DNA of 64,000 nt from Catajapyx aquilonaris (taxonomy: Eukaryota). Under the pieces are notes generated by a model. That model made no database searches. It was given only the letters and a program-made list of their open reading frames with translations, and was not told the origin of the DNA. The position numbers and the translations under genes are program-made. This document shows positions 4,411 through 51,622 of the stretch, piece after piece. Numbering within the stretch: position 1 is the stretch's first letter; each line of letters starts with the position of its first letter. The stretch lies in assembly GCA_000934665.2 (NCBI GenBank), contig KZ538370.1, forward strand, positions 1 through 64,000, written 5' to 3'.

Positions 4411-7400
4411 TTAGCTCTCTTGATTGGACTTACTACGTCGCTTAATCCCTGCAAGCTCGTTTTTAATGACACTGTTGCTTTCACTGCTGCTTTCTCCGCT
4501 TTTACTGCTCAGCTTCTTCCTGGCTGGCTTCGTATCGCCTTCGAATTTCAAGATGAACTTAAGCTCATCCTTTGCCACACTCCACGTGGAAACCTGAGAA
4601 TATGAATGGTTATTGTATACACAATCCCACCAAAACCCTTTCAGTAAAAAAAGGCCAAGTTCTCCTGACTGCTTGGCCGTAAAAAGTGGTGAGATCTGAA
4701 ATACGGCCAATAGTTGGTACACTCTACAGTAAATTATCAAACCTTTTCTTTCCTGGCTGTCTGGATACAAACAAAAATAAATTCTCCAAATGCGATTAAA
4801 GCGGCGATTAGGTTTCCAAAGACAATTAACCCAAATACTCCAGCAACATTAGCGACACCCAGGGCCATGTTTGGTACCTCTTTCTGCAATAAAATATAAA
4901 TAAAAAAGTTGAGTAACTTTAACATATATTGTAAAGTGACAGAATAATTATGAGAAATGAATACTCACAATACAAGGAGCACCTTTTCTTTTTTCTTTCC
5001 ACCATTTTGTTTTCAAAAGATCTAACTCTCCTTTTTCTTTCATTGCTAAAATTTGGTTGTTGAAGAGCTGTGTGAATGGGGAGCCTGTGTGGATATGAAT
5101 AGCAATCTATCACATAATATGGCCTGGTATGAATTATTACAGAGCGATATTGGATCATGTCAAAGAAAATTGTCGGGAAATTTAAAAAGGGCCAAATTTA
5201 TTATGATCATCAAAAATTAATTTATTGATTACCATATAAAGAACTGCTACCTTTTGGAAATCCTATGGCGTATCCTTTGTTATCCAACCATCCTCCTACT
5301 TGAAACAAGTCGCAGTTTCGTTCTACTTGGTACTCAATAATGGTCGACTCCATGAAAAATGCAAATTTTCCTTTCTCCCCAATGACCCTTTTCATTCCGT
5401 CGTCATTGTTCTGCACTTCGGCAATGTGTTCGGACATTACTTTGTAGTCGCTATCTGTACTTGTCTGCAATGAAACATTCATAGCATTTTGCAATTGACA
5501 ACAATGCAACAATGCAAACTTACACCAAAGAATTTTATAGTCGATCCAGACCCGACAGCACCGTATTTAATTTCAGTTTGATGAGCCAACTGTCTAGCCT
5601 CTGAAAATGGTGATGATGGCTTGTCGCTGGTAAGAAAGGCTGCCAGATTGGCAGTGTACGACGAAATGATGATGAGGATGAAAAAAGCCCATATACTCGA
5701 GGCCATCCGCGTAGAAACGGCCCTAAGCACAACATTATATTGTTAATACAAAAATTATTCTTATGTACTTTCCCACACATACTTTGGAGCCAGTTCTGTT
5801 CCTTGTTGCATCAATGATCCAATAGTGAACCAGAAGCTGTTCAGGAATCCAAATTGGTTCTCAAGCTCATCTGGTTCCTCTATACATGGATATGGATTGT
5901 CCCACTCGTATGGTGTTAATCTGAATAGTTAAAACATACATAATGAGAATATGCATGTATGTTGAGTACAAATTCCCTACCTTGCCACAAAGAATATAAT
6001 GACAGACACACCAACATATGCTATAGTCATTGATATCCAAACATCTTTAGAAAAAGGAGCCATGAAGGAAAAGAACGACGGAGGTTCTTTGAAAGGTTTC
6101 ACATACAGAACTCCAATACCTGCAATAAAATAGTGAACTATTTACATCACAATTAGCGTGTAGGAACTGATTATTTATATAACAAGCGTAGAACTACATA
6201 ATTTACGCATTATTATGCGATTCACGAGTCCTGGCCTGTTAGGCTCCTCCTCCGTCCTCCGCCCTCTGAAGGCGAGGTTTCCACGTCCGCGTCCGCCATG
6301 GCCTCACACGCCTGCCAGGAGGATGGGGGAGAGCACTTGGCAGCAGTGGATCGCATTGGGGGGGTGGGGGGTGGGGGGGACAACCAGGCCTGGAAATACG
6401 ACGACCCACCTATCCCTTGTTGAGACCGAACCCCGCACCATTGGCTCCTACTCGCGAGAATCACGAGCATTCCAGGCCTAATTTCTTCCGCCGCTGACGT
6501 TGGGAGGAGGTGGGTGGAGCCTAACAGGCCAGGACTCGTGAATCGCATAATAGCAGAGTTGAGTCAAAATTTCATGTCAAAGATTCAGTTTCTGAAATTT
6601 GGGTTGCATCATGCAAGGATGAGAAGTGACCCCAGGTGGAAGGGTACCTTTGCAAAATTGCTTGCCATACACTTACCTAAAGTCATGAAAGGCAATGTGA
6701 AATCCAGTGCTCCTGCTCGTTCTGAATTAACGCTTATATCTGCTACCACCATATCTGATTGCTGATGGAATAGAAACAAAAATAGATGGACTCAAGATGG
6801 ACCAAACCGCAACTTACCCCGTTCACTACTTCTCCTATCATTCCGTTCCATACTCCGGTTTGTTTGTCCAGTGAACCATAATTTCCATCTTCAACTAACC
6901 TTATCTTATATCTAAATGATAGGTTTCGAGCCAAGTAATCCAAAAATTCAACCACAAATCCCTCGTACTGATCGTTTCCTGACATTTTCTCAACCGATTC
7001 TTTCAGCATTGTTGTAGGATTGTTCTGGAAAAAATGCAATTTTAAATCACTTATTAACTCTAAATTAAGGTTGAAACTCACCAAAATGGTTGTGACTGTG
7101 AGAGTCCTGTTGACCAGGTTGCTTATAGCTTCTGATATTACTATTTCTGGAGGGTCCATCATTCGTGTAAAGTTGTTCTTCTTGGTCCAATATCCAGCAG
7201 TCTTTAACCCAGTGTTTAGCAGTTCAGTTACTTCCAGATTAAAATCAGTGCGATTGCCCATTGGATCCAGGGCCAAATGACCACTTAAGCCCTCAATAGT
7301 GGTCTGAAAAGAATCGTGTTGAAAGTAACAGTTACTTTTCAATTATTGAATTGGTGAGCTCACCATTTTCAGTTCATTGACAACACTTTCGCCGTCCATC

Positions 7401-30914: not shown

Positions 30915-33900
30915 TTACTTCATGTCGTAGATATCGAATCTAGATCTGGACTTGCTAACAAGAGCCTCCGATGCCTCTGGCTTCTTGACAGGTTTTGTAT
31001 TAACCCTAAACTGCATCATGAACTTCAATTCCTTTGCCATTTCGGTCCATAATGAACTCTGAAAAAACAACAACACAACTGTCAGTATTACAACAATGGA
31101 AATTTACAGACAGAGCATATATACTTACGTTGATACTCTCCGTTTACAATGCCAGTAATGCAAAGAAATATTTTCAAACGTTTAATTATAATTTAGCTTT
31201 TAATAAGCGTCACACAATTGATATTTACAGTCGAGTATGAATATGCAAACTAATAGAGTAATGAGAGACATAGTAGTTGGTGAGTTATACACTGCAATTG
31301 CCAATTGCTGTAGTCAGTGCTGGTATTGTTACGCACTATTCTACATGTAAAATTGCTCATTAGAAAAGTACAAAATGCATAGAAATCTGGTATTGTCCCC
31401 ATTCATTACCACATTGCTCTCGACCAAAAAAAAATGGTGTGAAATAGCCATATAAAAAGTACAAATGACCAATGATTGTGTATGAAGTAGATAGTTAGTT
31501 TGTAACAAAAAGACTGGAAATAGAATAATAGCTAGACTCGATCTATGTGTGCCTGGGATATGGTTTGAAATAGAAGCACCATATTTTTTTCGAGGTTTAA
31601 GAGGGGTTGAGGGGATAAGTCTTGGACACTACGATGGAAAAGTTTTCATCACATGCAGAATTAATGCTCGTCAGCTGAGCTCCTGCAATCGTCATGAGGT
31701 TTGAGAGTTTCTGGCCTGTCGCTGGAAAGGATTTAGTGCACAATTTTACTATCCTGCTGGTATAGTTAGTAGCGTCATGGACTACTCGTGACCTTTGCAT
31801 CAGCATGTGAACCTGGGTGACCCACCTTTTCTTCCATGGCCATCTTTCGCGATTTCCACACGAATTCGCACACGGCCACAATGCACGACATGGCCATTCC
31901 GCCTAAAAGGACCACGAACACACCACCCACGTTGGCCATACCAAGCTCAGCAGCTTCAACCCCTGCTTTGCCCGCCCCTCTCTGAAAGGTATACAAACCC
32001 GCATTACATCTGGCACAACCGGTTGAGACTTTACAGGGGCACTCACTTGGCATTGTTTCGATTTTGGGTTTAACTTCCACCAGCGGTCCTTCAACTCTGT
32101 TAACACTCCTTTTTCGGCCAGCTTCAGCACAGCCTGGTTTATTTTGTCTCTGTATGGAAAATCTGAAAAGAGTGTATTGTGTTAATTGGTCTAACAGTAA
32201 GTGCTGTAGGTACTTACTCTGTGGCATTCCCACTCCATAGCCCTTAGTGTCCAATGGGCTGCCCACTTTGTCATAGTCGCACTCTAGTTCCATCATGTAA
32301 TCAATCGAGGTAGATTCCATGAAGAAGGCATAGTGCCCATCAGCCTTCAGCACTCTTTCAGCTCCTTCTTCGTTGGATTTGACAAATACTGAGGGTCTGG
32401 CTGACTCCATGTTCATCCACATACGTTTGTAAGTAGGATGAGTTGATGTCTGGAAAAGGTATGGCTGCGTATTTTTGGAGATACAAAAATACCATGGTCT
32501 CACCGCAAAAAAATTCTTGGTCGATCCTCCTTCCATGGTGCCGTATTTGATTTTATTTTGGTTGGCTAAGTCATCCACGCTCTCAATCGGCGAATCTAAT
32601 CTTTCCACAGTAAGAAACGCAGCTAAATTGGCGGTGTAAGACGAAATCATGATGAGCGTGAAAAACCACCAAATGCCAGCAACCATCCTTGTGGAAACAG
32701 CTCTAAAGTGATTTGAAACATACTCATTACATTCAATTCCTGGTGATAATTTGTTACACATGTGACCTGGTCGATGCCTGCTCTCCCAAAACCATAATCA
32801 ATTTTGTCGTAATTTTCTGTCACAAAATTTTGGATGCAATCTGTGTACTTTCAGGTGTAAAGTAGTCCAACACTAGGTACTGTAGCAGCTGTATACTTGA
32901 ACCAAGTTCATATGTCATACATTCCACATTGGTCCAAGTATACGAAAGTGGAAAGTTGAAGAAGTTTGACAACACCTACCATAAATTCTACTCTACAAAG
33001 TTTGACAGTAAGGAGGATATATGCTGTTAATCACAATAGAATAAGCAACACAGTATTAAAACATATGCACAAAATTCATGCAGTTGGAAGTAGTGAAGGG
33101 ACCCATTTTTTTGTTGAAAAATATATAAATCCAGATGATATATTCGTGATAAATATATAGAAGCGAACTAATTGGTCACGTTGATCACGTTTGAAAAGCC
33201 AGCCTTACTTTGGCGCGAGATCGGAACCTTGTTGCATCAAAGAGCCGATGGTAAACCAGAGACTGTTCAACATATTGAACTGGTTTTCCAGCTCATCTGG
33301 CTCGTCATTGCATGGATGGGGGTTATTCCACTCATAGGGGCTAAACCTGGAAACAGAAAGTGTTCGAGGGGTACAGTACAGTAACAAGCGGTCATCGAAA
33401 AAAAAAGAGGAGGGATGTAAAACAAAGGGTTTCAAGTAGCTCTCGGTCACTTTTGCACACCAACATTAGCCAAGAAAAGGACACTTGAAGCGGTCTCTGC
33501 TCCAAGTACAGCTAATGTTGCTATAGCGCCCATCACTACCCGAATCAACATGTGCTGCGCAATAAATATTTACGTTATTTTGTGCAGAACAGTAAACACA
33601 TAGTTACTTTGTACATACCTGTGATTCGCTAAGGGTGGGCCTTTACAATGATTTTGTCAGAATTCCGATTCCTGTTGATTTTTTGTTGGCATACAGGAGG
33701 GTATAGGTGGGTCGGGAACTGGGGGTGACAGACTGACAGTTGTCTTCAATACTGCTGTCGCCACAACCAGTCAGTATTCAGATCTCACCACTTTTGACGG
33801 CCAAGCAGTCAGGAGAACTTGGCCTTTTTTTTACAGAAATGTTTTTGGTGGGATACTGCTGTCGCCAACCAGTCAGTACAAACATCTCCCAAGGGGTAAA

Positions 33901-36900
33901 TTGACAGGAGCAACACGTAATAATACTGCCCATTGTTGTCACCGCCTGATAGTTTTCGGCCCAACCTTAATCGCGACTGCAACATTGAATAAACAGCCAG
34001 TTGATTCGAGCAGAGAGGAAGGTTTTAGTGCCTCAGGTGTAATGATGCCCAGCCTAACGATCCAGAAAAACCAAAGAAAAAATAATAAAAAAGGTCGGTT
34101 GACACAGGTATCGGAAATCCAGGCTGCAGTCCATGGAGGATTTTAAACTTGTGACAGGCCTTACTTTGGAAGGATGTCACAACCCTGGGTTAGGGAACCC
34201 AGAGCGAACCACAGGCAGCTCTGAAAACCAAGCTGAGTAACTAGTTCCTCTGTCTCCTGTTTTGGACTCCCTGGATCTTCCCATTCATACGGGCTAAATC
34301 TGGAACAAAAAGGCACAAACAAAATGGCACGGGCGTGATCGATTATTAAATTGTGCTCAAAAAAGATATAAAAAATTTTCTTGGCTGATGTTGGCGAAAA
34401 AAACTCTAAAATTATCTGCAAGAAAGTTTTCGGAGCTATTATTTTGACAGTAAGAATAGTTGAGACATGTCTGACCTTGCCAGTACGAACATGAGAATGG
34501 ACACGCCCATGTATGCAGCAGCCATGTAAATCCACACATCAGGCCCTAAGGGTTTCAAGAATGAAAACAAGTCCGCCGCTTTGCTCTTCGGTTTCTTGAA
34601 CAAGATGCTGATACCTGAAAATCCATAGAACATTCAGTGCACATTAATATTTTAATTATAATTACACAGCATACCCAAGTCAAGAAACGGCGTTGTGAAG
34701 TCAACGTGCTCCTCTCGTTCACGTGTAATTGTCAAATCACCTATGGCCAGGTCAGCTTCCTGTAAAGCAACACAGTGTCAATATTGTTCAACAATGAACC
34801 GTGTATAGTTGCATATATTACCTGAGTCAACAATTCCTGAATCATCCCATTCCAGGTCTCAGTGTCCTTATTGTATGACCCATGCTGGGCATCACCGACC
34901 AGGTGTATCGAATAGTTAAATCCAGTTTCGTTAGCTATTGCTCTAGCCAAGTCCACTGCATATCCTTCCAGCCTCTCGTTGTCAGGTAGTCCTTCAGAAT
35001 TAGGTTTCTCACTACAATATGGCTCACCCTGTGTGAGAACCACGAGAAAATATTATTGACATTTCCCGAACTGATGCAACAGTTGGCCTACCAGTTTGGT
35101 TACGATCTTGAAGTGCTTCTCTCTTATATTCTCTTCAATTTTGGCCTGCAAGACAGTGTAGTTTCGAGTGATGGTCAAGTTGCTTTGATCAGTCCACACC
35201 CCTGTTTGGTTGTATCCGTCTGTGGACACCTCAACTAACTCCAATGTGAAATGTTTTCTAAATCCCAGTGGATCGAAATTGATTTTCCCAGTGAGTCCAG
35301 TAAATCCCATCTGTAGAAAGACAATGCATTGTAACATCATAGAAATGTAATGCCCTATGGATCTTACCCATTTCATTTGCGTGATGATGTTTGACCCATG
35401 CTCCGCCTTTTCTGTCCCATCGCAGTTGAGCTGTTTGATGTCGATGGGGCGTACCGAATCTAGTTGGTGAAGAGCTTGAGCAAAGAGGTGTACTGCATCG
35501 TAAATAAGGGCTGTCTCCGTCTGAAAGCAAGGTTAAGTGTTGCGTAAAATTGTCGCTCTGCAGGCGCTAACAAGTTTGACAACAGTAGGCGACTAACCTT
35601 AATTGATGTCATGTTTGTATTGTTCAGTGAGTCCTGAAACAGATTGAACGGCCCATGCAGAAAGGGGGCATTAAACACAGTGCTATAAATCGAGTTAGAC
35701 TATATAGGAAAACTGTGTGAGAAGAGGAACCAATCTGTCCAAATATTGACACCATCAAGTGGCAACAAATGGGCCCTTGTTGCTTGGGCTGATAGCCATC
35801 GACAGTCCTTGACTAGATGTTCAAAAATAGCTTAGTTTTTACACACAAAAAATAACCTTGTTAGCAATCTTACTACTACTTGTCTCATAAAGTCCTGTTC
35901 ATGAAATTCATGCAACTTTTTATAATTATGATTTGAAATGCAGAATATTTTAAGGTACTATTTCTCTCATCAATTTTGACCACTGCATTCCATTCTTATG
36001 CAATATGAGCAAGCAAGCCAGTCCAATTTGGCATGTAACTACCTACTGTCCTGTGGAGTTGGACATGACATTCCTTAGGCTTTACCGGTACCCTATACCG
36101 TACATTGTATGCCAAGGAATTACCAGAAATCAGTGTTGAAACTCTATTTCCGTCTCAGCCCGCCTCTCCCTATTCGTGAGTAATATCACTAGAAACTCAT
36201 TACCGAACAGATTCACCCAAACAATATTACGTCATTATAAACATTTCCGTCGCTTGTTAGCTTCCCCTCTATATAGTTAGCTTCCCAACAACATTTGCGG
36301 CGACTTCTCCTTGCGCAGCACCCTACTAATTAAGCTTGTTTGCAGAACCGTTTCCTCCATAATTTATGCTTCCCTAGAAAAAAAAAAACTCGGTGTGTTA
36401 TTAGAAGCATGGCGTTTGTCAAAATGACATTCCCTGCAATTAGTCTGCAGATCCAGGGCCTCCGGTAATGAAAGGACCGTAGATCAAACGTTGCGGAGGG
36501 AAGTTGGGCATCACCTACCCTATAGCTATTTAACTCTGGGTAGGAATTGAGAGTAGTTAGATCGATAAACCCTTAAGGATGGGTCCTAGCAATAATGCTC
36601 CTTTTCCTTGGTACTACAGTTTGATTCGCTTCCTCTCGAAAAAAACCTTTTCCACCAATCCTTTTACCTTTGGGATTTGATCGCGAAAGCCTCCTCTCCT
36701 ACTGGGAATCATATTCATTTTCTTCCAGTCATTGAATATCTGCTTCACTTCTTCTTTCTCCGGATCGAACAAACGAAAAGCGCTTATGTTTGCTCGATCG
36801 TGAACAAAATCTTCTAAATTCAGAGTGTGCACATCCTGAAAAAGAAGAAGAGTATTGTTTGAGATGGGTTTGACAACGTCATTTGTTACATAGGAGTAAC

Positions 36901-39900
36901 CGGAAGACACCTATAGAAAATTGGGTGAGGCCCAACCCAACATCTCATTTGAGGCCACGTTCCTAGGTTTTATTTAGCAAGAGTACATAGGATGCTCACC
37001 AGCGAGGTTAAGATGTACCGGGCTGAATCTCCCATCATGCCGACTTGCTGCGCTTGTCTGAAGATCTCCACAATGTTTTCGGTGGCACAGTCTAGGACTA
37101 TGCGGAATTCTAGCTTTATCTTGAGCTCCTTCAGTAGTCTCCTGCAGGAGAAACAGTTTTTTCAGTCATATCCCAGATATACTTGGGCGAGGGATGCCAA
37201 GCGCCGAAGGCGCGCGAAGGAGGCGAAGCCCGGGGGGTGCTGGGGGGCGAAGCCCCATCGCCGAGTGTAGCGAGTCCCATGGTACAGTATACTGTACCGT
37301 GGGACTCGCTACGCTCGGCGATGGGGCTTCGCCCCCCCAGCACTTGGTAGCTATACTAACAAGTATATACTTAAGTATATGAAGTATACTATTATATGAC
37401 GTATACGAAGTATACTAGTAAGGTATATGAAGAATATGAAGTATACGAAGTATACTAGTATGTGAAGTATACGAAGTATACTAGTATACGAATGCAACCG
37501 GCGGATACAGCCCTATCTTCAGCGGATACACAAACATATGGGCCGGTTGCGGGGACCACTTGGGGTTTGCCTATATGCAGGCGGGTGCCCTGGAAATTTT
37601 GACATGTGATTCACTTGTGTAAAATAAATGTTTCTAACAGGTAAGTTGGTGTAACGCACCATAACGATGCAAAGAGTGCGTGAAGAGACCTTCAGAATAT
37701 ATACGCAATTAGGCTACACCGCGGGCCTTTGAAGTGTTTTTTAGATTGGGCCATTACGCTCTAAAAGGAGCAGAGGAGCCATTAACTTACAGGCTGGAAT
37801 TTTTTCATCTTTTTTTTTTAAAAAAAAAGCTTAATGAGGATCCTCATCTTTCGAGGACCTCCGCTCCAATTCCTCCAATACGGCTTCATCTATTGTAAGG
37901 CAGAAGGCAGCTTTTTGGGGGACCCTCTTCTTTTTTTTCTCAGTCTTTTCCAAGTGCCATTGGGATTTTTCCTCACTTTGGGTAATGGCCAGAACATGGG
38001 CTTTGAACCGTTGAATGGAATTTTTTTTCACTTCTTCTCAGGCGCTTGTTGTACAATTAGTTTTCGAGTTTTATATGGGGGACCTGCATAGTCCCCGTGA
38101 CAGCTGGCGCCATCGTTTTATTGCGTGTTTCGAATTTTATGAACATCTTGGCGGTTAGTGCCGTTGGGATGTAAAGTAGCCGCTACTTTGAATAACGTTC
38201 GTATCCGGAGCTGTTTTTAGCATAGCTTATCCATAATTTGTGCTCAGAAAATGGCAATGAAGATAACATTCACTTTCTTAACTCACAGAGGCAGTAAAGG
38301 ATAAGTAATTTACGTTGCATACCATAACAACAACCCTATTTTTGCCTTGTTATGAACAATTGTTGCTGACTCATTTTGGCATCATTTTGGTCACATGATG
38401 CACTTCTTGTAACTTCAGGTAAGACTTCTAAGAAATTTCAGTCTGTTCTTGTTAAGAGTTTGCAATCTCATGTTATGAAGCATTTCCTGTGCAAGCTTGA
38501 TGTCCTCGCCTTTAGAGTTTGGCCTTCAGATGTGAATAAGCCGACTGAGGTTGGCCGCCATTCAGCATTCCCTTTTGGCGCATCCCAAACACCTCTTGTG
38601 GGTTTATTTTGGGACTTTCAGCCTACTTCGACCGAGTCCTGTTTCTCCCCCACACATGCTGCTAAAGCCACTTGTGTTGTGACAACACATTTCGATCACG
38701 TGAAAAAGCCATGTCCCAGTCACGATCCAAATATTTTCTATGGACTCTGCAACTAATTCTATATCATCCAGGTATACCTGTAGTCCTTGTTTTGTGGAAG
38801 CTGACGGACAGTGATTTTGGAGCCAAAGTCTGTCGAGCTTGGAGCCTTAAGAAGCTCCTGGAGTCTCACAAGACCATCGTTGTCTTCATACAGGACAGTG
38901 AAGGTCTTCCACTTGTAAGCTCTCACCAGGTCCACATACGCCTGTAACAATAATAGTAAATAGTTGCACCATTACAATAAATATAGCCATTTAAAACCGA
39001 TTGTACTCCGTAATGTTTACAACTTTTTGAACTGCTATCAACATCCTGATTTTCCCAATGACAAACAGGAAGTGAACCCCCTGATTGGACACTTCCCATA
39101 GGCTAGATAAATCGGATCCTCTTTTCCTGCATGGCACGTTCAATATGTCCCCCTCATAATCAGACGACCTCCCCTAAAGTTGAACCATCTCCAAGAAAAC
39201 CTCCCCCCATTCCTTCATAGACAGTCGCCTCTAAAAGTGTCAGTCTTGGCGCACTTAAATGGGCTAGGACAAGTGTGGTATAACCCTTCTCATGGATGAT
39301 GTGCCGACGGCATCAAATGGACCGGGAGCAAGCGACAAAAGGAATGATGGAGCCTAATACCCACCAGCAAAATGGTACTATAGTACCTGCCTCCCTTTTC
39401 CTGTGGACCCGGACTTTATGTGCGGAAATTGCGTGCGTTTTATGACAGAGTCAATAGGGAAAGAATGTGGCAATTTTGAGGGAGTCATGTTGGACCGCAG
39501 ACTCCAAAAATGTGGAGAGGAAAGTGGAGCCAAGAAGAGGGTTTTAGGATGGAAGAGAGGTTGTTCACATAAGTGTTTACATATAGCGAAATGTACAGTA
39601 CAGTACACGCTCACAACATATTAAAATCCTTCGTTGTATGGGCAGTATGGCCCACTGCTCCTGCGCAATGCAGCGCCTCTGGTGGATGGCAGATGGAACT
39701 AGCCTTCTATCTGTTCCATCTCCCATCCACAAGAGGCGCTGCATTGCGCAGGAGCAGTGGGCCATACAACGAAGGATTTTAATACTTTAAATGACTTTAT
39801 ACCTCTTGAGTACTGCAGGAGGAAAATCCGGGCATAATCTGATCCTTTCTTATCCTTAACTGTAAGCACTGCTCGTAAATCAGTCCTAAACTGTTGCTAT

Positions 39901-42900
39901 TGTTTAGAATAAGCCCTGCTGTGATTGTTTTAAATGCGAGCTCACTGAACCCTGATTAGTCTGCTAACTCAAACATTTTCTGCCGCACACTGATGTTTGT
40001 TTACGTAAAGTGAAATAAATGCCAGCATCCATTCCTTCCTTCTCACATAAATTTCAACAGTTTATTGTACAGTACAGTGCACACTTTGTACTCGCCATTA
40101 TTTTTCTACAGTCGTGTACCACACAACACACTAAACTATGACAATATTTTTATAAACTATTATCCAATAAATTATTTAGTTAGTAAAATGACGCTCCTAC
40201 TTATCAACTCCAGCTCCATCTATGATAGAACCTGAATGGAGCGAATGTTGACAATTCCCTGAGGCCTTCCGATTGAATTAGCTGGCTGGGGGTTCTATTG
40301 AGGGAATAAAACCGTGTTTTATGGATCAGCGCGCAAATCACTGAAAGGTTTCGACATCTCCACTTTTTTTGAGGTGGTCGAAAAGTTAGGGTTCTCCTAA
40401 AACGCTCTTAGGAAACAAGCACTAAGTTTCTCCTCTCGCCTGCTGAGGAAGTTATATAAAAAAATTAATTTAACGCAGATATATCTTTAAGTAGTAGAGC
40501 TGCACGGAGGTAGATATGGAGACTATGAGGTGGTAGCTGCCGAGGATCCAAGTGACATATGACAGGCTGCCAGGGGACAGATAGAGCAATTTCGCACTCA
40601 ATTTGTTCCCGGATTGTGTGATAAGACGACTCCTGCGAGAGCTTTTGCTTGCTTGACTCCTTCCTCTTGCCTAGCTGACGTTGCGGAGAAAATAGGATTT
40701 TGGCTATCAATTACACGCTCGCTTCCGGTGCTGGATCCGCCCCAGTGTAATCACACAGACGCAGTATACGCTCAAAATGCTATAAGCCACCATGAAATAT
40801 CGTCTTTCACATTATTATTATTATTATTATTATTCACCCATGAATATCGATATATTGATACCTAACAAGGCGTATAAAGAATAATGGCGCTTTGATGCGA
40901 CAACGTTATTATTATGCAAGCTTCAAGTGCTAAAATCAGCATGTTATCCACAAAGGATGTTTACATCCTGCTCTATTCATTTTGAAGGATAGTTCAGCAT
41001 GATTATGACTTTTTATAGAACAAGGAATCATTTTTAGCGTATCATTTGAATTAGGGCTGTTAAAAGTATGATTGTGCAATATACAGTCTTTTAAAGGATA
41101 GAATAGTCTGATGTCACCTTCATCCCGCGCATGCTCAGAAAACACGGCTGCTGCGACGTCAAACCATTCTTTCGTTTAAAGGGACTCTCCACTCAAAAAA
41201 CAAGTTTGTCTCTAAAAATCGGGCAAAAAATCCTGAATCCGAAGGTGCAATTCGTTTTTCTCTACGCGGAACGGTAACCCCAGGGCGAGGTGTCAAAGTG
41301 GGTCGTCTGCTAATGAGCAGCGCCGCCACGCGGGGAACAGGGGAACTGGAGGGCTGCACCGCTCTGGGATGGGCCTCAGCGTGCGGGCAGGCGGGAGCAG
41401 CCCTCCAGTTCCCAAGGTCCTGGGGGCGTCGCTGGCGGACGGCCAGCTTCTATAGCGCACTATTTGAATTTCACCATTTTGACCCCTCGCCCTAGGATTA
41501 CCGTTCCGGGTAGCGAAAAACGGATTGCACCTTCGGATTCATGATTTTTTGCCCGGTTTTTAGAGCCAAACTTGTTTTTTGAGTGGAATGTCCCTTTAAA
41601 GGACTGTACCGGAAAAGTATCTTTTGAAGTATCAAATCATCTGCCTGAATACGCTCCTTGAGAAATCCTTCTTAAACCAGGTTTAAAACCGGATCGTTAA
41701 GTTTGGAGGGCGGTCTTGGCTGACATGTTCACGAGCGTCGAAGTTGTGGAAAGGGGGGGCTTATGGAGTATATAGGTAGAAAGAGCCATAGGAGTAGAGA
41801 GGAGGGAATGAAAAGAGTGGAAGAATAATGGACAAAGTTTTCCGGACGATGTCACACCAGAGCCATCTCGGTGCTGGTTTAGTTGCCAAATTTGGTAGGA
41901 TGGTACGCCCTTTTTTCCCTGTGTGTGTGTACAGTGTAATGTATTTGCAAGCATTTTCGCATCCGTTCATTTGGCCTGGGACCAACTGTTCTAAAAACCC
42001 TAGCAGAAAACGAAGATTGGGGAAGCTGGTGGGAATCGCAGTTTGGTGGAAACTAGAAACACCCCCCCCCCCCCNATCCTGGAAACCTAATGGAACCCAG
42101 GGGAGGTTTTTTCATTTCGGATTGAGTGGGCATGCTCATGTCCACGATGGGATCTGAGCCTAGCATCCGGACAATACGGGGGCTTTCAGACTTGTCCGGA
42201 ATAATTGTTCATTAAGCCAGATAGAAAGGGCGTTGTTGGGATTCAGCACGAACACTGGCTTGGTGTCAAGAAGTGCTTTTTGTGCAATGAGAACTGGTAT
42301 AATATAGGATGTTCCCATAAGGGTCATACACCGTTTGAGAAGTCCTATACCAATCATGAAAGGGCAATCCCTACCCCCGAAAAAAAACCCAGTTCTATAT
42401 TCAAATAATTAAAGCTCAAAATGTTACTAGATCCTTTGATGCTGGGTAACGAGAACACCTTCCAGCCAATTTACTTTCCGGACGAATAAATAATGTACAA
42501 AGTTTCTAGCAAAAGGTTAATTGGCTACCCTTATCTTCTCGGAAAACGCAACAGAGTAATTCCCCTTTTGGCAAATTATCCCATGGGTTTTCGAGTAAAG
42601 ACCTCACGCTGCGCAGTTATCAGCTCGAAGCATTATTTGTGAAAATGAGTCAAGCATTACTAATCGATGCCGTCAGCTGTTTAGAAAGAGAAAGTTTAAG
42701 CAACATTACTAATGTGGATAAAGAATAGCGTTTATGAGTCGCTGCTATTTGTAACAGCGATTTTTTTAAAAATAATGCGGCTTAAATATCAAGTGGTCCA
42801 ATTTTCAAAATCTAGCCTCCCAGATAGGTTACAGTGTTGAATTACACGCTCTCTGCCGATTGGTAGACCCCAGAAGGCGGCAGCTGGAGCCAGACCAGGC

Positions 42901-45900
42901 AGCGATTCTAATTAGTGTCCTTCCACTCTGTAATCCCGTCCATAAAAGCGAGGAGAATATTGGCAGGAGAGAAGTGCCAGAGTTTGCAGATCATTTGACC
43001 CCCCCCCCCGCTAGTGATGACCCACTCCTATCTATGCTCGTTATTTTTTGGGGTTACTTTTTTGATTACTCCGGGAGATTGATGAAAACGAGCTGCTATC
43101 CGCTAGCAGCTGCTGCTTGACCCAATATTGCCAATAGAGAAATGGTGGATAGTGACGCAGAAAAATATTTTGTTCGTTGAAAGTTCCCATCCACCAGAGG
43201 CGCCCCGTTGCGCAGGCGCAGAACGCGAGCCAATCAAAAGCCTTGGTCGTATACAACGAATGATTTTAATATTATAGATCAGCGGTTCCCAAACTGTGCT
43301 CCGCGGTGGATCTCCAAGTGCTCCGCGAAAAGATTGGGAAATAAAATATGTAAAATTAATGTGACAAGATCTCAAAATTTTTAATTTGTGTGGCCATGAA
43401 CTCTAAATTGGATATAAAACTGCCCCCCCCCCCCCCACGAAATGTTTGAAATAGCATGAGAAATTACTAATATATTCATGATTTTTGGGGGGAAAAGTGC
43501 TACCAATTTAATCAAATCTCCTACATTCACCTAAGCTCGTGTGACCTTGTACCCACGAATTTCTCTCCTGAAAAGTGTTCCGCGATTCGAAAAGTTTGGG
43601 AACTGCTGTTATAGATAGTTGAAGTAATATCTACCGACACAATAAATAAAAATATTTTTCACTTTTATTAGTTAATATAGCCAACTACTCCAGTTTAACG
43701 ACATATATATTGGGAATAAGAATTTGTACTTAAACTCCAATCAATTTCGTGTAAAAATTAACCGGTACGTTCCTTTAATCGGGGGTGTTCCGGTCATTAA
43801 AATTCGCCTAGCTGATGAATAATACAAGTGCCAATATGGAGCTCATATTATGTATGCAGGGGGCCCCATTTAAGCGCATTCTGTCATGCATAATGATCGA
43901 GGCGAATATTGGGGAATGGCTTCACATTATTGTACATAAACTTTAATTGACTTTTGTTCTCACCTCCCTTTTTTTTAAAAAAATCCCTTTTTGTGTCTAT
44001 AGGGGGTCCAAAATTTAACAGACAACTAGATCCCCTCATGGTTAACGTCGCTTTTAAAATGTAAACCTCACTAATGAGCTGATTCCTTGTTGATAGTTTG
44101 GTCTCTTTTCATTTTCAAAGTCATGACAATGAGGCAGTATATTTATTAACACCTGCACGTAGCTCTGTATTGTTTAACGATGGAAAGTCGTAATGAACTG
44201 CTGTAATGTTTTGGGAGGGGAGGGTGGCCCTTTCACAGGGTTTTCACTAAATAATGTGCATTGATGGTGATGAATGTGCTGCACAGGGCTTTGTGGCAGG
44301 AAGAATGTGTAACGCGATTGGATTTCGGTGTCAGTCACTTTTTTGGGGGGGGATGGCCTAGTAGCTGTGTCGATAAGCTGGCTAATTCTCACTAAACTGC
44401 TGGTTTCAAAAACCGCGATGATTTTTTTAAACCGCACATTTTCAAAAATTATTATATGACGTCACAACAGTAATTGCGTACCTATTTCAAATATGAAACA
44501 AGCTGTTACTTCTTATACAAAATTAGGACACACTTAGCTACAAACGCTAGGTGAAACTAATGTTTTAAACAGAATTTAAATTATTCGCATTTCACAGCCA
44601 TATTGGAATTGGCTAGATTTATTAGTGTCAAATTAGTGTCAATATTAGATCAGTTCGCATTTTTAAATGCCACCGTATGACGTCGCAGTAAAGTGTCGAT
44701 AAACCCTGTCACATTGAAAACCAATGTCATATTCAGGAATGTTAGTACCAAATCACGCGACCATAAAACCGCAATTATTTTTTAAAAACTTGATTGAAAT
44801 CTACCTTTCAAATATCGCACATTATTGTGACACTGGTGTCCTGGCAAATAAAGCCGACATAGAGGCAAATGAAGTGTTGACTTTTTACCTTGCTGAGGAT
44901 GGATGGATGCGGGTAGAGGTTGATGAGGTATTTGTCCGAGCCTGTGCGTTGCCGGAAGTCCCATCGGGTCTCGATGTGCGGAACAGCCATGGCGTCGCAG
45001 ATGGACTGCACGTGGCTGGCAGTAGGGCTGGATTGGGGACCAAAAATGGCCGCCACACCAGACTTCAGGAGATGGCACACTGATGGAGGACAGAAGAAAA
45101 AAAAAAACCAGCTTTATTTAACCGAACCATTGTTGCAGGAGACATGAAATTTTTGTAGAAATGAAACACATTATTCTGATATTGTAATCCTATTCTTTCC
45201 CTTTTGTATAGAACATGAAATGTATAATTAGAACAAAATGAATTCAGAGAGATTTTAGGCCACCTCCGGATTTTCTAGTAAGAATAACCCTCCCATCCTG
45301 TTTCCCTTTTCTTTTTTCTTTGAATATGGAACATGGGGCTCTGAATTCTAAAGCATGCCAAATGGGAAAGGTTATATGCTCGCAGGCTCCCCGAAATTTC
45401 TTCCTGCTGGTGAAGCTTTCATTCTCCGGCTGTATCCGCACATTTTTTGAATGCACCCACCCTATACCACCCATCTAGAAGAGAAAAAAAAAATCTGCAT
45501 AGCAAGAGCCTGGTTCCAAAATTCAGGGAAATCCTCTAGCAGCCCAAGAATTTTCATTATATGTTAATTCGTCAATATTATTCCGGCTGATTTTTCTACT
45601 CCATTTCCATGGATCAAAGTTAGCTGACATTACACATATCTTCGATCCATTTTTTTTGTTGGAGACCCTGGCAAATTAATTACTAGTGAGCTGTGCCCCA
45701 CCAACCAGTTTTAATTTCTTTACGAGGATTACACCACGGTGAAATCACGCAAACTTTTCCTCCCGTGATGAAAGAAGGGGAAGCCCGGGGAAGCCCCATT
45801 ACGTAAAGCCCACTCCGGGAAAATGCTACTTTTTTTTAACACCATCCCACACATCTATATACCTAGTATACATACTATGGTTGATTAGATTTGGCCTCTC

Positions 45901-48900
45901 TGGGCAACAACACCAGCGAATTGCGGAGAATAATGTTCCATTAATTATGTACTAGCAATGGAGTTTCCGGTGGGCTTTCTCCATAGGGCAAAGTTACTAT
46001 GAAACTGCAGAACGGGACCGGAATAACGCAAAGGTGAAACGCTCATGAATTACTTGATGCTGGAAGGAGTTTTATGGGCGGGAAAGTTGTGTCGCGGTTA
46101 ATTCTTGTGGTATCACTGGTATGAGGAAAGTATGAGCGAGTGTGAGCAATGTTATGAAGACGACACAAGTCCTTAAAGGGACACTCCACTCAAAATACAA
46201 GTTGATCTGTAAAAATCAGGCAAAAAATCCTGATTCCGGTGATACCATCCGTTTATCTCTGAGACGAACGGTAATGTCAGGGGAAGAGACGAAAGTCGGA
46301 AAAAATTCGAGGTCTGTTCGAGAGTGGCGCCGCCTGGCCACCTGTCCAAGTTAGGCGACGTTGGATAGTAGCGCCGCCATTCCCAACGGCGTCTTGGATA
46401 AGTTGCCTGCGGGTATGGGGATCCGTGGGGATCTGGTTGTCTGGCGCTCTATCCAACGTCGCCTAACTTGGCCAGGTGGCCAGGCGGCGCCACTCTCGAA
46501 CATACCTCGAATTTTTTCCGACTTTTGTCTCTTCCCCTGACATTACCGTTCGTCTCAGAGATAAACGGATGGTATCACCGGAATCAGGATTTTTTGCCTG
46601 ATTTTTACAGATCAACTTGTATTTTGAGTGGAGTGTCCCTTTAAAATAAACCTGGTTTTTTTGTATTATATTGTGACGCCCCCGGGTCCGCTGGACTACC
46701 AAGAAAACACCTGGGTTCCATGGACCTATGCAGGTCACCACCTTAGTACAGACTCTGGTTACCAACTGACTCTCCCCTGGCCAAAGCGAGGGAAGCAGTG
46801 CGCATGCCCCGCCCGCATCACATGACCAGAAGTGGCCGGGCTCTCACACTATGTACCCGATTCTTTAATTACAAGCTACAGATACATGTTTATGAACCCG
46901 ATAATTTTAATAACACGAAGTTAGCTTGTACTAATTGTTTATATTTTGAATACCAGAGGCCATGCTCATTAAAAGCACTATAAACAGCCACAATAGGCTT
47001 GTGGCCTAAAATGTTAACATGTAAAAAAACCGCTCTTTGTTGGAAACCAGTTCTATCCTATAAATGAAGCTATCACAGCTCAATTCACATCACAGAATGC
47101 GTAGAAAAACAGTGTGGGCTGTTGTTTTGCATGCGTACAGTACTTACGGTTTTTTAAGAGTCACCAGGTACTACTGTAGAAGAGGCCTGAGTACAGCGTG
47201 TTTCAGTTGCCCATTGTTGACAGCATATCCAAAATATTGTTCAGACTCCTGTGAAACCTGACTTTAGCTTTATACTGTGACGTCCAGATTTACTCTCTCC
47301 AAAAAATTGCTCCTCTACATTCCCCCAACAAAGCCTCGCAACATACCCCTTCTCAGTATAAAAATGGTTGCGATAAACCAAGTCTCCTGAATAGACGCAA
47401 TACCTTATCTCCAGAAAGGCAAGGCTTGAAGTTGTTGTGAGGCCTGAGGGAGCCACCACCTTCTCTTTCTCTCTTCTCTCTATATCCCATCTTTGCCATA
47501 CCCGTCCCGTCCTACGTGTGCGATAAATTCCCAACTCCAAATATCAATAAAGCCGCAGGGAATTAAGGCAAAAGTGACCCGAAGAAATCATGCTTCCAAA
47601 CTTTTGGCCCGAGAATATTGGCTCTGGCTCGAAATCGGATCGTTTCTGCCGTCGGGGTCTAGCGTCTCGTAAAAGGAAAAACTTGGCTCTTTCTACGGGA
47701 TTATCCGAGAGGATATATGCCCACCCCGCTTATTCTGCTTTTCTTTTTTTATTATTCGGCAGATTTCGACTTCTTAATGGCGCGCCAATATTGGGTTTTG
47801 CAATAACTGTGAAGATCCAGGGTAACAATCTGAGTCAACCAATAGCAGGTGTCAATTCTCGGCTGGAGCCAATGGGCTATGTGGCTGACAGGGTTGCCAT
47901 TTAGGGGGTGTTCAAGCTGAAATGTTGTCGCTAAACTAGAGTAAGAGCATAATATTTTTTTAATTTTTTTAATTTTTTTTGAAAGAGTTGTGATGGACAT
48001 TTGCAAGGATTTTACATATTTCCTGCCACTTCAGGTTTCTCCTTTCCACCCTCTACATCCGGTCATGACCCCGCCTTCTTCCAAACTGGACCCCAACTGG
48101 ACCCCTGGAGCGAGGGGCTTGATAAATACGATGATTCAACTCTGGACTTCTGATTCCAGTGGTTCCAAGTAGAATCGTTCAAACTAAGTTAAATGGAATT
48201 ATCAATATTTTTTTGACTTAGGTAGAGTTTTTGTCGAACAAGCAAATGTATAAAACTTGAAAACAATTTTCGTAGATGACATGCTTCGAGTGCCCTGCAT
48301 GTGCGGGCCATTCTTTCCTGTTCCAATTTTGGGGTGTAGGCAATGTGAGTATGTCGTCTGAGAGAAGTGGAGGATCTGACTAGTCATGGTCATGTGGAGT
48401 AGAAAAGGACTTCTTCGTGCACTGTATAGAAACAGCACAGGCGGCAAATGAAGGTAAGATCTTCCCATTCCTCCATTCCTTTTTTTTTCTCTCTCTTTCT
48501 ACTTTTTTGGAGGAACCCGTGGAGCAATATCGAATTCGGAGACTGTCTGGAAAGAATTGGTTGGAGGCAGTAAAAGAAGCCGTCCTAAGGTACGACTACA
48601 GTTTCTTCACAAGCACTAGAGGTTTGAGGTAGTAGTCAGGAAGAAAGGAGAGTGTAGCTGATGGGAGGCCCCCGCTTTCCCATAAGCGAAATTACTTTTA
48701 TGCGGTCATATTACGGGGACGGAGGGAAGGTATTTCATTCAGATGAGACGGTGCAAAATGTATGCATATTATTTTTGCGACGGTGTTTTGTCCGTTGTCG
48801 TAAGGATTAATGATGCAAAAAATTCGACTATTCTGGAGAGCTTTTATGCGAGCTGTGGGATCGACCAGATTTCACTTTTTATTACCTTATAGTATAAGGT

Positions 48901-49850
48901 ATTACCTTATAGTATAAGGTATTACCTTATACTATAAGGTAATAAAAAGTGAAATCCTGTCGATCTTATAGGTATAGGTATAGGTATAGGTGTAGGTATA
49001 GGTATAGGTATAGGTATAGATGTAGGTATAGGTATAGGTATAGGTATAGGTATAGCTGTTTTATTATTTGTAATTTTTATTATTCAAACGAAAACGTTGT
49101 ATGTTTTCATGTATTACTGTACAGTGCCCATTCCACACCATAGTGAGCATCTTATTTGAATTCCACATCCATATACAGCTTGTCCCACGTATTAAATTAC
49201 TTCGGGGCCGTGGGACATTATATTGGCACAACACCACTGTTACGTAATCTTGCAAATTTGCTACTGTGCTGAAAAAAATAGCACCATATAACGTATTGTT
49301 CGGACCATCTGCTTCCACCGAGCAGACATCAGCAGACTACTATAGCCGAGACACTGGAAGACAATAATAGCAGGACCCCTGGATTTATTGAGCTCTGCAC
49401 GTGGGCAGTGTGTCTTATACAATGGTAAAAGATGGTGGGACAGCGACTCGGCTGGGTCCTTTTGTGAGCCTCTTACTGATGGTGGTCACTCTGATTTAAA
49501 ATAATGGACCTGACAGCCTGGTCATTTCGTTTGGTCCGAGGGTTGGAAATATAGCCTAGATTTTCAGGAGTGAAACACGGGAGCTCATTTCCATAAAATG
49601 AAGCCCATCTATTCTTACCCCATGCAGAGTGAACTTTGGAGAAATGAAAAGATCGATCTATTTTTTGTAGGTTTTTAATAAGAGAACCCCTCACCTCTTT
49701 TGGAAGCGTGGAAGCTGTCCTGGGGGGCAATGGGCTCCACTTGGGCCGAGAGTCGAGACCTGGTGAGAATGGTACGGTCTCCGTTGATTCGGTTGATGGC
49801 ATACTTGAAAGCCACCTCTTGGATGGTATCGCTGGTGTCGAACAGTCCTC
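30915..49850 (-). CDS. KaiR1D: Conserved kainate receptor subunit (gene E), KaiR1D/CG3822-like; 5'-partial (signal-peptide exon not located)
   Basis: Exons: 49695-49850 ([52 protein letters not shown]), 44889-45079 ([29 protein letters not shown]), 38778-38941, 37000-37141, 36668-36835, 35598-35633, 35368-35520, 35092-35310, 34822-35028, 34675-34759 ([15 protein letters not shown]), 34476-34614, [34165-34299 or 33209-33346], 32504-32702 ([24 protein letters not shown]), 32218-32449, 32047-32162, 31826-31981, 30915-31058. The ATD resembles insect KaiR1D as I recall it; orthology is not tested. Confidence 0.9.
33209..33346 (-). CDS. Gene E alternative pore-loop exon 'b' ([46 protein letters not shown])
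   Basis: 138 nt, phase 2-2, acceptor tctgtttccag, donor AA|gtaagg, canonical MQQG filter. Confidence 0.92.
33779..33852. mobile_element. 74-bp interspersed element, copy 2, with a ~30-bp flanking duplication
   Basis: atactgctgtcgccacaaccagtcagta on the left and atactgctgtcgccaaccagtcagta on the right. Confidence 0.85.
34165..34299 (-). CDS. Gene E alternative pore-loop exon 'a' ([45 protein letters not shown])
   Basis: 135 nt, phase 2-2, acceptor ttttgttccag, donor AA|gtaagg, open frame. Confidence 0.88.
37237..37343. repeat. GC-rich ~105-bp palindrome followed by gaagtatac(tagta) tandem repeats to ~37490
   Basis: gtgctggggggcgaagccccatcgccgagtgtagcgagtcccatggtacagta|tactgtaccgtgggactcgctacgctcggcgatggggcttcgcccccccagcac. 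Confidence 0.8.
39619..39784. mobile_element. Hairpin MITE
   Basis: tattaaaatccttcgttgtatgg...cccactgctcctgcgcaatgcagcgcctct and its reverse complement. A related half-copy lies at ~43196-43271. Confidence 0.75.
41180..41595. mobile_element. TTAA-flanked palindromic MITE (Kolobok/T2-like)
   Basis: TTAA|AGGGACTCTCCACTCAAAAAACAAG ... CTTGTTTTTTGAGTGGAATGTCCCT|TTAA with long inverted arms. TTAA TSD plus AG..CT ends fit Kolobok. Confidence 0.85.
43280..43608. mobile_element. hAT-type MITE
   Basis: TIRs CAGCGGTTCCCAAACT / AGTTTGGGAACTGCTG and a perfect 8-bp TSD TTATAGAT on both sides. Confidence 0.9.
46177..46640. mobile_element. TTAA-flanked palindromic MITE (Kolobok/T2-like), related to 41180-41595
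   Basis: TTAA|AGGGACACTCCACTCAAAATACAAG ... CTTGTATTTTGAGTGGAGTGTCCCT|TTAA, with ~190-bp near-perfect arms. Confidence 0.88.
48859..49054. repeat. Palindromic tandem repeat (attaccttatagtataaggt x3) inside an inverted repeat, followed by a (TATAGG)n microsatellite
   Basis: Directly visible. It explains the spurious RYRYRY ORF. Confidence 0.85.
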
Positions 49851-51622
49851 CTGTTAAATATGGAAAAAATATGCATTTTTTAGACTTTTTATCTACAAAA
49901 AATATTATAGAACAGCTCTGTCCGTCAGTGGATAGGCTCATGAATTTGCTAATCTTGCAATTATTTTTAATTATGCAAACAATTCAGCCAGAAACACCTA
50001 GAACTGAAGAAACTGTGACATGCAACACCAAAAAACAGATACAACCCTAGGGAACTGAGAGCTGATTGGATTTGAACTATTTCCATCAACCTTTTTTGAA
50101 ATTCCCCAGGCATCGCCTCTTTTTCCTCGTTCCTATGATGCCCTCCCACAGGCGATATTAAAACCCGGTAATTAAACACAATAATGATCACTCTTAGCAA
50201 TAAAAATCGCTGTTCATTTGCAACCTGTATCGGGTAGTACCGATGTAATAAAAATTCTCGCTACACAAAGTCACATCAAACGTTCCGGCTTTGTGGACGC
50301 TAATAAGTTGAAAGGGCATCATATGGTGCGGCATAATGCTAGAGAAGAGCTTCCGTACTAATTTTGATACGTTTATGGCTGTGATAATGCTAATTTCTCG
50401 ATTGATGTTACTAAACACGTGTAATTTCCGCGTCTAGTATCGCACGTTCACTTTTTCTGCCACGTTTTTTTTTTTTTCTATCAGCCAATGGGAATGAGCC
50501 AGGCTGGACTCCAACCAATCATGCTTCCTGCCACGTTTTTTCTATCAGCCAATGGGAATGAGAGGATGGACTCTGACCAATCCTGCTTCCTGCTACTTGG
50601 AAATGGGGGTGGGACATCATTTCAAGCTTGCAAATTGGAAGTGTCAACAAACCGGAACGTCCCAGATCGATCTAGCCACGATCCGCTTATTCAAACGGGC
50701 CAACTTGCAAAAATCGACCTGAAAATCCGCCAATTTAATGCTGTCCGAGGAAATACGGACCCAAAATGGGGCTTTATCGCCTTAGAAAGGCAGCTTGCCA
50801 AGCAGGAAGTGGTATAGAGGTGGGCCTGCTTTAGACCCCTTGATGTAGAGATGATCACGGCCAATATCCAAGCAAATGGTTTGTAAAATAAGCATGTGAT
50901 CTTGTTAAAGTCCGGTTCTAGAAAGTGGTTCACACACGAAAACCCAACATTTACAAAAATGTGCAAAATCTGAAAAATGCATTGTATGTTTCTTCCGGAT
51001 GGATACATTTTAATGTCAAAAATATTCATATAAGCCCAAGAAAGCAGGTCTTTGGCCAATGTCTGAAAGCATATATTTGGCAGAGTTTCTAAGCCCGGTT
51101 GTCTAGTTCTTTCAAGACAGGCCCCGTATAAATATCGGGGCGATGTGAAAAAATCGGACTTGATTCCGGAAGAAAACAAAACAATGGTTCATAGCTAGTG
51201 GGAAAGTCAAGAAATGGGTTCTTTGAACGGGGTCCTGTCCGAATCTGGACCAAAAACTCGGACTTCTCTGGTCGATACAACCCCCCACGATTTAAAACCT
51301 GGCTTTTCCTTTTACTCTTGAGAAAAAAAGGTTTTCCTTGGAACTTGGCTTACAAGCAGGAAGTCAGTTGTAAACCTTCATTCGCATAGAAAGCGGGGCT
51401 TTATATAGACACCCCCCTACGTAATTCTGCCTGGTATTATGCATTCTGCTCCAGAGAATATAATTAAGTGGATGTTGTTCCCCGTGTAGTGGCAATTTCC
51501 ACTAGCGCTGGGTGTCAATAAGACGTGCTACGTGCTGCAGAGACATCCAGGGTGTAGAACCAGGTATAGGAAGTCCCTGTAGCTACGTTTGGTTGTGAAA
51601 TATTTGATGATTTCAGCTCAGA

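Follow-up and report, generated by a model that had tools for sequence, protein, structure and literature searches.

In AMPA and kainate receptors, the permeability to Ca2+, the rectification and the block by toxins are decided by the residue at the pore-loop tip, the glutamine/arginine (Q/R) site, which vertebrates alter by RNA editing performed by ADAR enzymes. The question raised by the locus studied here is why a kainate receptor gene of Catajapyx aquilonaris should possess two neighboring exons for the same pore loop, one of which has a shortened selectivity filter. This gene, hereafter called gene E, lies on the minus strand of the 64,000-nucleotide (nt) stretch of DNA that we analyzed, hereafter the window (positions 1 to 64,000 of contig KZ538370.1 in assembly GCA_000934665.2), and its two pore-loop (M2) exons, exon a followed by exon b, are placed between the exons for M1 and M3 (table 1). 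On the basis of sequence comparisons, we consider that exons a and b are probably the C. aquilonaris copy of an alternative pore-exon pair that is widespread in the KaiR1D-like genes of arthropods, the two members of the pair being used alternatively.

The anatomy of the locus is compatible with the use of either exon. At the 5' end, both exons contribute a single base that finishes an Arg codon opened by the M1 exon (AG/A or AG/G, the slash marking the exon boundary), while at the 3' end both leave AA, which is turned into Lys by the first A of the M3 exon; hence the two share the same phase, and both have an open frame and a length that is a multiple of 3. Their acceptors are formed by a pyrimidine-rich tract plus CAG and their donors are the same, GTAAGGC. 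Leaving aside the ends with shared codons, exon a is translated into 44 and exon b into 45 residues, both beginning with FSPYEW. In a tblastn search of the 64-kilobase (kb) window with exon a, exon b is matched with 46.7% identity over 45 residues, a likeness that is not due to chance because its E value is 1.6e-10. (The same search returned an 8-residue match, LGSLHQGC at 28941-28918, which was rejected as a chance hit with E = 0.72). Exon a retains the segments FSPYEW, CLWF, GS and QGCD.LPK, but it lacks the PHPC motif, carries a Cys after QG and has a filter that is one residue shorter. The canonical pore spacing combined with the M-Q-Q-G filter is present in exon b and absent from exon a. 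These results bear out the description given in the first-pass annotation, which was made by a model from the sequence alone and had reported two homologous, open exons between M1 and M3 with the same phase and with strong, near-identical splice sites, exon b having the canonical MQQG filter and exon a being devoid of the PHPC cysteine, endowed with QGC and shorter by one residue in the filter. Adjacent, homologous, of like length and phase and provided with splice sites of their own, exons a and b thus have the arrangement of a mutually exclusive pair.

The same annotation had left open whether similar exon pairs occur in other arthropods, and the answer is that they do so widely. A full HMMER search with exon a produced 34 matches at E values up to 0.001, of which the top ones contained two matched stretches; the corresponding sequences have two pore loops placed end to end. 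In our comparison set of 252 proteins, two directly adjacent pore loops are present in 34, all of them from arthropods, with sources spanning Orthoptera, Phasmatodea, Coleoptera, Hemiptera, Hymenoptera, Lepidoptera, Diptera, ostracods and the centipede Strigamia. Malacostracan crustaceans display the two-loop pattern too, but in a looser form. Moreover, there are 15 protein pairs whose members, over their full length, differ in nothing but the pore exon, this being of the a-type in one member and of the b-type in the other (the types are defined below). Thirteen of these pairs, from 12 insect species, belong to a single species each (Macrosteles, Cacopsylla, Schistocerca americana, S. gregaria, Leguminivora, Manduca with two pairs, Plutella, Chilo, Zerene, Papilio polytes, Aricia and P. 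xuthus), the other two being formed between Schistocerca species. The isoforms X1 and X2 of S. gregaria, for instance, have 893 residues each and differ at 12 positions, all of which lie within residues 557-599, whereas in Anopheles the a-type exon is found in AGAP000801-PA-like and a b-like exon in AGAP000801-PB. Because of these 15 swaps, the alternative use of the two exons can be considered to be already present in the public annotation of relatives, and the pair appears to be a widespread property of arthropod KaiR1D-like genes rather than a peculiarity of C. aquilonaris. Two other searches added nothing to this picture: a word search of longer proteins with exon a gave no candidate with three shared words, and a metagenome locus (L001) retrieved with exon a plus 16 upstream codons was discarded as a chance match, which involved only the intron-derived part of the query and contained no ionotropic glutamate receptor (iGluR) by tblastn.

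Mutually exclusive use, as proposed in the first-pass annotation, is sustained by these relatives as far as alternative choice is concerned, but not in its strict form. Strict exclusivity is not imposed by the reading frame, since the lengths of exons a and b (135 and 138 nt) are both divisible by 3 and their joint inclusion or joint skipping stays in frame; nor is it enforced by steric hindrance, because the intron separating the two exons is 818 nt long. Forms of both kinds are indeed annotated. RefSeq isoforms with both exons exist for Anabrus (X3), Bombus (X4), Vespa (X12), Helicoverpa zea (X1/X2/X7), Spodoptera litura (X1/X2) and Cydia (two X1 entries), while isoform X4 of Galleria mellonella (P0252) joins M1 straight to M3 and has no pore loop. 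Taken at face value together with the remainder of the 34 two-loop proteins, such isoforms might even mean that exons a and b are both constitutive and always included together, so that the subunit would contain two re-entrant loops in tandem. We regard this as highly improbable. Single-loop isoforms distinguished by nothing but the swap are also annotated in the same species or in their close relatives, many of the entries with both loops are models made automatically or named 'hypothetical protein' and, among solved iGluRs, each of the 60 PDB matches listed has a single matched stretch, none being of the two-loop kind.

To define what the two exons encode, we classified exon types by position alone in the proteins with two adjacent loops, obtaining 27 distinct first exons (a-type) and 25 distinct second exons (b-type). 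The Q/R position is occupied by Gln in all 25 second exons, whereas in the first exons it is occupied by Gln in 17, by Arg in four (Apis, Polistes, Bombus and Aulacocentrum), by Cys in another four (Chionoecetes, Armadillidium, Penaeus and Trinorchestia) and by Ala in the remaining two (entries P0004 and P0005). Single exons resembling the first type have Gly (P0010), Thr (P0015) or Cys (P0006) at this site. The case of Hymenoptera is particularly clear, the first exon reading MRQG and the second MQQG; since Arg is thus carried by the first and Gln by the second, exon choice in these insects would toggle between Arg and Gln, which is what a splicing-based equivalent of Q/R editing calls for. 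The parallel with editing that was drawn in the first-pass annotation therefore suits the Hymenoptera; in C. aquilonaris, exon a carries Thr or a deletion and not Arg. For the KaiR1D of Drosophila, it has been reported that the wild-type receptor is blocked by philanthotoxin while the Q604R form is not, and that Q604R KaiR1D fails to rescue basal transmission (10.1101/2025.10.06.680643, citing Li 2016 and Kiragasi 2017). Apart from the Q/R site, a-type exons are told from b-type exons by a Cys before LWF, an Ala after WF, a Cys at position +3 and LP instead of AP, all of which are found in exon a. Among the matches listed, those from brachycerans have the a-type exon only.

The residue of exon a that corresponds to the Q/R site varies with the alignment. 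The best match of exon a among solved structures is the pore loop of GluA2 (HMMER, E about 2e-4), and in this alignment Met is faced by Leu and the Q/R residue by Thr, in agreement with the original assignment of Thr to this site. Conversely, alignment with MAFFT within the a-type set pairs the Thr with Met and leaves a gap at the Q/R position, an arrangement slightly favored by the Thr codon, ACC, being nearer to ATG than to CAA. Under either alignment, the filter tip of exon a is one residue shorter.

Exon b is rather ordinary: with b-type exons from several orders of insects it shares 89% identity (among the 120 matches listed of the 789 found in a word search), and it matches 20 of the 22 highly conserved b columns. 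Exon a, with at most 58% identity to any match, is not, and the following properties weigh against its being a working alternative. Only 8 of the 14 columns conserved in at least 90% of a-type exons are matched, six being lost, and among the 339 pore loops included in the comparison of filter spacing it is the only one with four, instead of five, residues between the Gly/Ala of the pore helix and the Gly/Ser at +2. Its branch in the exon tree amounts to 1.42 changes per column, whereas that of exon b measures 0.15 and the median is 0.06, and its score for the Pfam domain Lig_chan is 17.3 bits, which is below the cut-off of 30.8 that exon b exceeds with 34.8 bits. Furthermore, a search of sequencing runs with exon a alone (135 bases, from which 11 words were sampled) listed no RNA run. 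The unique deletion, the lost columns, the long branch and the subthreshold domain score would all be expected if exon a were a relic, that is, if the pair had been inherited but the function of exon a had subsequently been lost; the exon would then be always skipped, or else give a non-conducting product, and only exon b would make working receptors. An intronic duplex that brackets exon a (see below) and would favor its skipping is also in line with this possibility.

Although such a loss of function deserves consideration, we deem it unlikely for several reasons. The frame of exon a is open and its change in length is an in-frame difference of 3 nt; its pyrimidine tract and CAG are intact, and its GTAAGGC donor is the same as that of exon b. 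A dead exon that is in frame and has strong splice sites would be harmful whenever included, so that selection should remove those sites. The residues of greatest diagnostic value are retained, namely FSPYEW, CLWF, QGCD and LPK. The variable N-terminal half recurs in Lepidoptera and some Diptera, in a-type exons that occur singly in annotated isoforms; because PHPC is also absent from these exons, its loss alone does not indicate decay. We therefore favor the alternative use of both exons in C. aquilonaris, on account of the open frame of exon a, its in-frame length change, strong splice sites resembling those of exon b and conserved type residues, together with the alternative use annotated in relatives. 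That a working channel is actually made with exon a is a more delicate step, which we infer only tentatively.

The origin of exon a was evaluated with profiles and a phylogenetic tree. Using profiles built from the exons classed by position, exon a scores 55.3 bits on the a-profile versus 46.9 on the b-profile, while the corresponding values for exon b are 96.6 and 104.6 bits. In the tree, which was constructed with 45 columns, exon a lies on the a side of the split with 99/97 support and exon b clusters among the b exons of insects. Orthology of exon a to the a-type exons of insects is thereby the favored, if not proven, relationship. Yet the tree also requires about three changes of the a/b label, and the first exons of malacostracans group with malacostracan second exons with 97/91 support; because of these two features, more than one event of duplication or conversion is likely to have occurred across arthropods. 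Exon a could accordingly be envisaged as the product of a separate, lineage-specific duplication of the pore exon followed by fast divergence, after which it may still be used alternatively. Besides the malacostracan precedent for repeated duplication or conversion, a tree with exons a and b as sisters is not rejected by the approximately unbiased (AU) test (p=0.092), and the length of the exon a branch renders its placement unsure. However, this constrained tree is worse by 9.47 log-likelihood units, exon a possesses all four of the a-type marks listed above and its score on the a-profile exceeds that on the b-profile by 8.4 bits. In addition, exon a is less similar to exon b (46.7% identity, as above) than exon b is to the pore exons of the neighboring paralogs (61-77%), which suggests either an old split or very fast change. 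All considered, a lineage-specific duplication seems to us rather improbable, and it would concern the history of exon a and not its use, thus overlapping with both the alternative use of the exon and its condition of relic.

If the two exons are indeed used alternatively, the M1 donor (34476) would be joined either to the acceptor of exon a (34299) or to that of exon b (33346), and the donor of the chosen exon (34165 or 33209, respectively) would then be joined to the M3 acceptor (32702). Either choice would keep the frame because the two exons share the same phase. The predicted product of exon b has the canonical filter, MQQGSD, in which Gln occupies the Q/R site. The predicted product of exon a has instead an altered pore tip, in which Thr replaces Met or Gln, one residue is missing, Cys is present at +3 and ILP takes the place of LAP; subunits containing exon a should therefore differ in permeation or block.

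A candidate for the control of this choice is an inverted repeat, I1, of which one arm lies in the intron between M1 and exon a and the other upstream of the acceptor of exon b (table 1). Encompassing 28 nt that are 82% complementary as DNA, it is the strongest inverted repeat in the region 32690-34490, and in the sense RNA 25 of its 28 positions can pair when G-U is allowed, as counted from the sequence. The energy of the resulting duplex was estimated at -30.4 to -30.9 kcal/mol by scans with 40-nt windows. None of 60 dinucleotide shuffles of both introns reached this value (mean -23.8, standard deviation 1.8, z -3.8), a comparison for which the intron pair was picked after the list of repeats had been inspected, and the next best partner of either arm from M1 to M3 gives -21 to -25 kcal/mol. 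Were the duplex to form, the pairing of 34376-34403 with 33451-33478 would place exon a in a loop and exon b beside the M1 donor, thereby acting as a putative switch in favor of exon b. Against such a role, the best duplex of the antisense strand is just as stable (-30.8 kcal/mol), and strand asymmetry was consequently dropped as a sign of an RNA function. Competing RNA structures have been reported to control mutually exclusive exons in human ATE1 (PMC7797038); no second, competing partner for the arms of I1 was found from M1 to M3. A splicing role of the 28-nt duplex thus appears doubtful.

The significance of these results stems from the pattern seen across many arthropods with two pore exons, in which the first exon varies at exactly the Q/R site while the second never does. 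It is conceivable, albeit speculative, that the first pore exon constitutes a copy of the filter that is free to vary, whereas the second is frozen as MQQGSD, the choice between them representing the arthropod counterpart of vertebrate editing. The Q/R residue of the first exon would accordingly vary with lineage, being Gln in most insects, Arg in Hymenoptera, Cys in malacostracans and Ala in two further taxa. Exon a, with its shorter filter and Thr tip, would then be the furthest gone of the 339 loops, and might confer altered permeation and altered block by polyamines and toxins, or produce a poorly conducting regulatory subunit, with the choice being set by the duplex. If exon a is used, it provides a natural experiment on how far the filter of an iGluR can shorten; if it is not, it exemplifies how such a pair decays. 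A full-text literature search found no paper in which alternative exons for the pore loop are described for the kainate receptors of arthropods, although a published account may still exist, and a 2026 paper on the evolution of AMPA receptors refers to alternative splicing in the invertebrates studied as still to be examined (PMC13520880). The lack of any paper on the pair in this search possibly reflects the condition of brachyceran flies such as Drosophila, which may be without exon b. What is new here is the most deviant first exon seen so far in our comparisons, since the arrangement as an exon pair is already visible in public annotation.

Regarding its identity, gene E can be classified as the KaiR1D-like kainate receptor of C. 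aquilonaris on the basis of match scores and domain content. Proteins annotated as KaiR1D or 'kainate 2' match it with 1046-1078 summed bits and 49-50% identity, as compared with 610-776 bits and 35-41% identity for the neighboring genes A-D, and its best named matches include 'kainate-type ionotropic glutamate receptor subunit 1D' (among the matches listed). It is about equally far from all insect orders and an ostracod, the closest protein being approximately 50% identical overall and 89% within exon b (again among the matches listed; a search with the M3-M4 region gave 7372 matches, of which 120 were listed). Its recognizable domains are PF01094 (ANF_receptor, 39.2 bits at 35056-35532 of the minus strand) and PF00060 (Lig_chan, 89.1 bits at 31823-32704, same strand), and the gating motif SYTANLAAF of its M3 is found at 32641-32615, also on the minus strand. 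Gene E belongs to an array of five tandem kainate-type receptor genes that have the same orientation and occupy positions 4743-49851 of the minus strand, with pore exons near 5916, 11942, 19964, 26343 and 33345 and SYTANLAAF motifs near 5661, 11467, 19706, 26096 and 32641. Only six pore-loop-like segments were detected in the window by motif search and tblastn, namely one for each tandem gene plus exon a; the extra pore exon is thus restricted to gene E, while its paralogs A-D have one pore exon each. The single pore exon of these paralogs ends with MQQG[TC]EL[AM]P, and genes A-D look like a local expansion.

Additional observations were made along the sequence. An open reading frame (ORF) of 340 codons on the minus strand (31775-32797) spans the M3 exon, a 54-nt intron and downstream exons; it is partly out of the true frame because one coding segment sits in another frame (ORF 31903-32181, with a separate tblastn match at 32157-32041). 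The intron between exons a and b contains, in antisense orientation, a plus-strand ORF of 154 amino acids (33682-34146), which has no Pfam match and is probably due to chance, as well as a short direct repeat (33749-33786 and 33853-33888; families D3 and D5) with 83-100% identity between its copies and about 102-104 nt from the start of one copy to that of the other. Four single N bases are present in the assembly of the window, at 42075, 54474, 58114 and 61587.

Table 1. Position of gene E, its pore-loop exon pair and the candidate intronic duplex in the window.
Feature	Position	Strand	Basis or remarks
Gene E, KaiR1D-like kainate receptor gene (approximate extent)	31823..49851	minus	tblastn extents; Pfam ANF_receptor and Lig_chan
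M1 exon of gene E	34476..34614	minus	sequence read; ORF including MFVLAR; donor AG/GTCAGA
Intron between M1 and exon a, 176 nt	34300..34475	minus	contains the upstream duplex arm
Upstream duplex arm (candidate docking site)	34376..34403	minus	inverted repeat I1, in the intron between M1 and exon a
Exon a, alternative pore-loop (M2) exon, 135 nt	34165..34299	minus	sequence, tblastn, profiles, tree
Intron between exon a and exon b, 818 nt	33347..34164	minus	sequence read
Downstream duplex arm (candidate selector)	33451..33478	minus	105-132 nt upstream of the exon b acceptor
Exon b, canonical pore-loop exon, 138 nt	33209..33346	minus	sequence, tblastn, profiles, Pfam, tree
Intron between exon b and M3, 506 nt	32703..33208	minus	sequence read
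M3 exon with SYTANLAAF	32504..32702	minus	sequence, motif search, Pfam

The closest equivalents of the C. aquilonaris pair are the a/b isoforms of insect KaiR1D-like proteins, such as the X1/X2 forms of Schistocerca gregaria, Manduca sexta and Papilio xuthus, in which the alternative segments have the same position between M1 and M3, the same order of a before b and 44-46 residues. The type residues also agree, the a-type corresponding to C.WFA...QGC..LPK and the b-type to S.WFT...MQQGSD.APK. Unlike its insect equivalents, however, exon a of C. aquilonaris combines the shorter filter seen once in 339 loops with the lack of PHPC and a very long branch, within a gene that is about 50% identical to the insect proteins. 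A second group of arthropod kainate receptors (P0078, P0082-P0084, P0116, P0119 and many others) likewise has tandem pore segments within one predicted protein, which differ by Arg versus Gln at the Q/R site. The repeated unit is in this case of about 86 residues and includes M1, with ..LRQGSGLNPK followed by ..MQQGSDLNPK, and the gene is other than KaiR1D and outside the window.

Analogous systems are known in other channels. Invertebrate NALCN and Cav3 have alternative exons that exchange pore or selectivity determinants within one gene (PMC3557258, PMC9694082). Those are four-domain channels in which the exons affect one of four non-identical repeats, whereas each subunit of a tetrameric iGluR provides one loop. 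The flip/flop segments of vertebrate AMPA receptors derive from a tandem intragenic exon duplication that offers two alternative homologous segments (PMC13520880, citing Chen et al. 2006); these are, however, part of the ligand-binding domain and alter desensitization, not the pore loop. As in the Q/R editing of vertebrate GluA2 and GluK1/2, the pair described here would allow one gene to give subunits with different pore-loop tips. The difference is that exon choice replaces about 45 residues in place of the deamination of one adenosine, and that the variant of C. aquilonaris is Thr or a deletion, not Arg.

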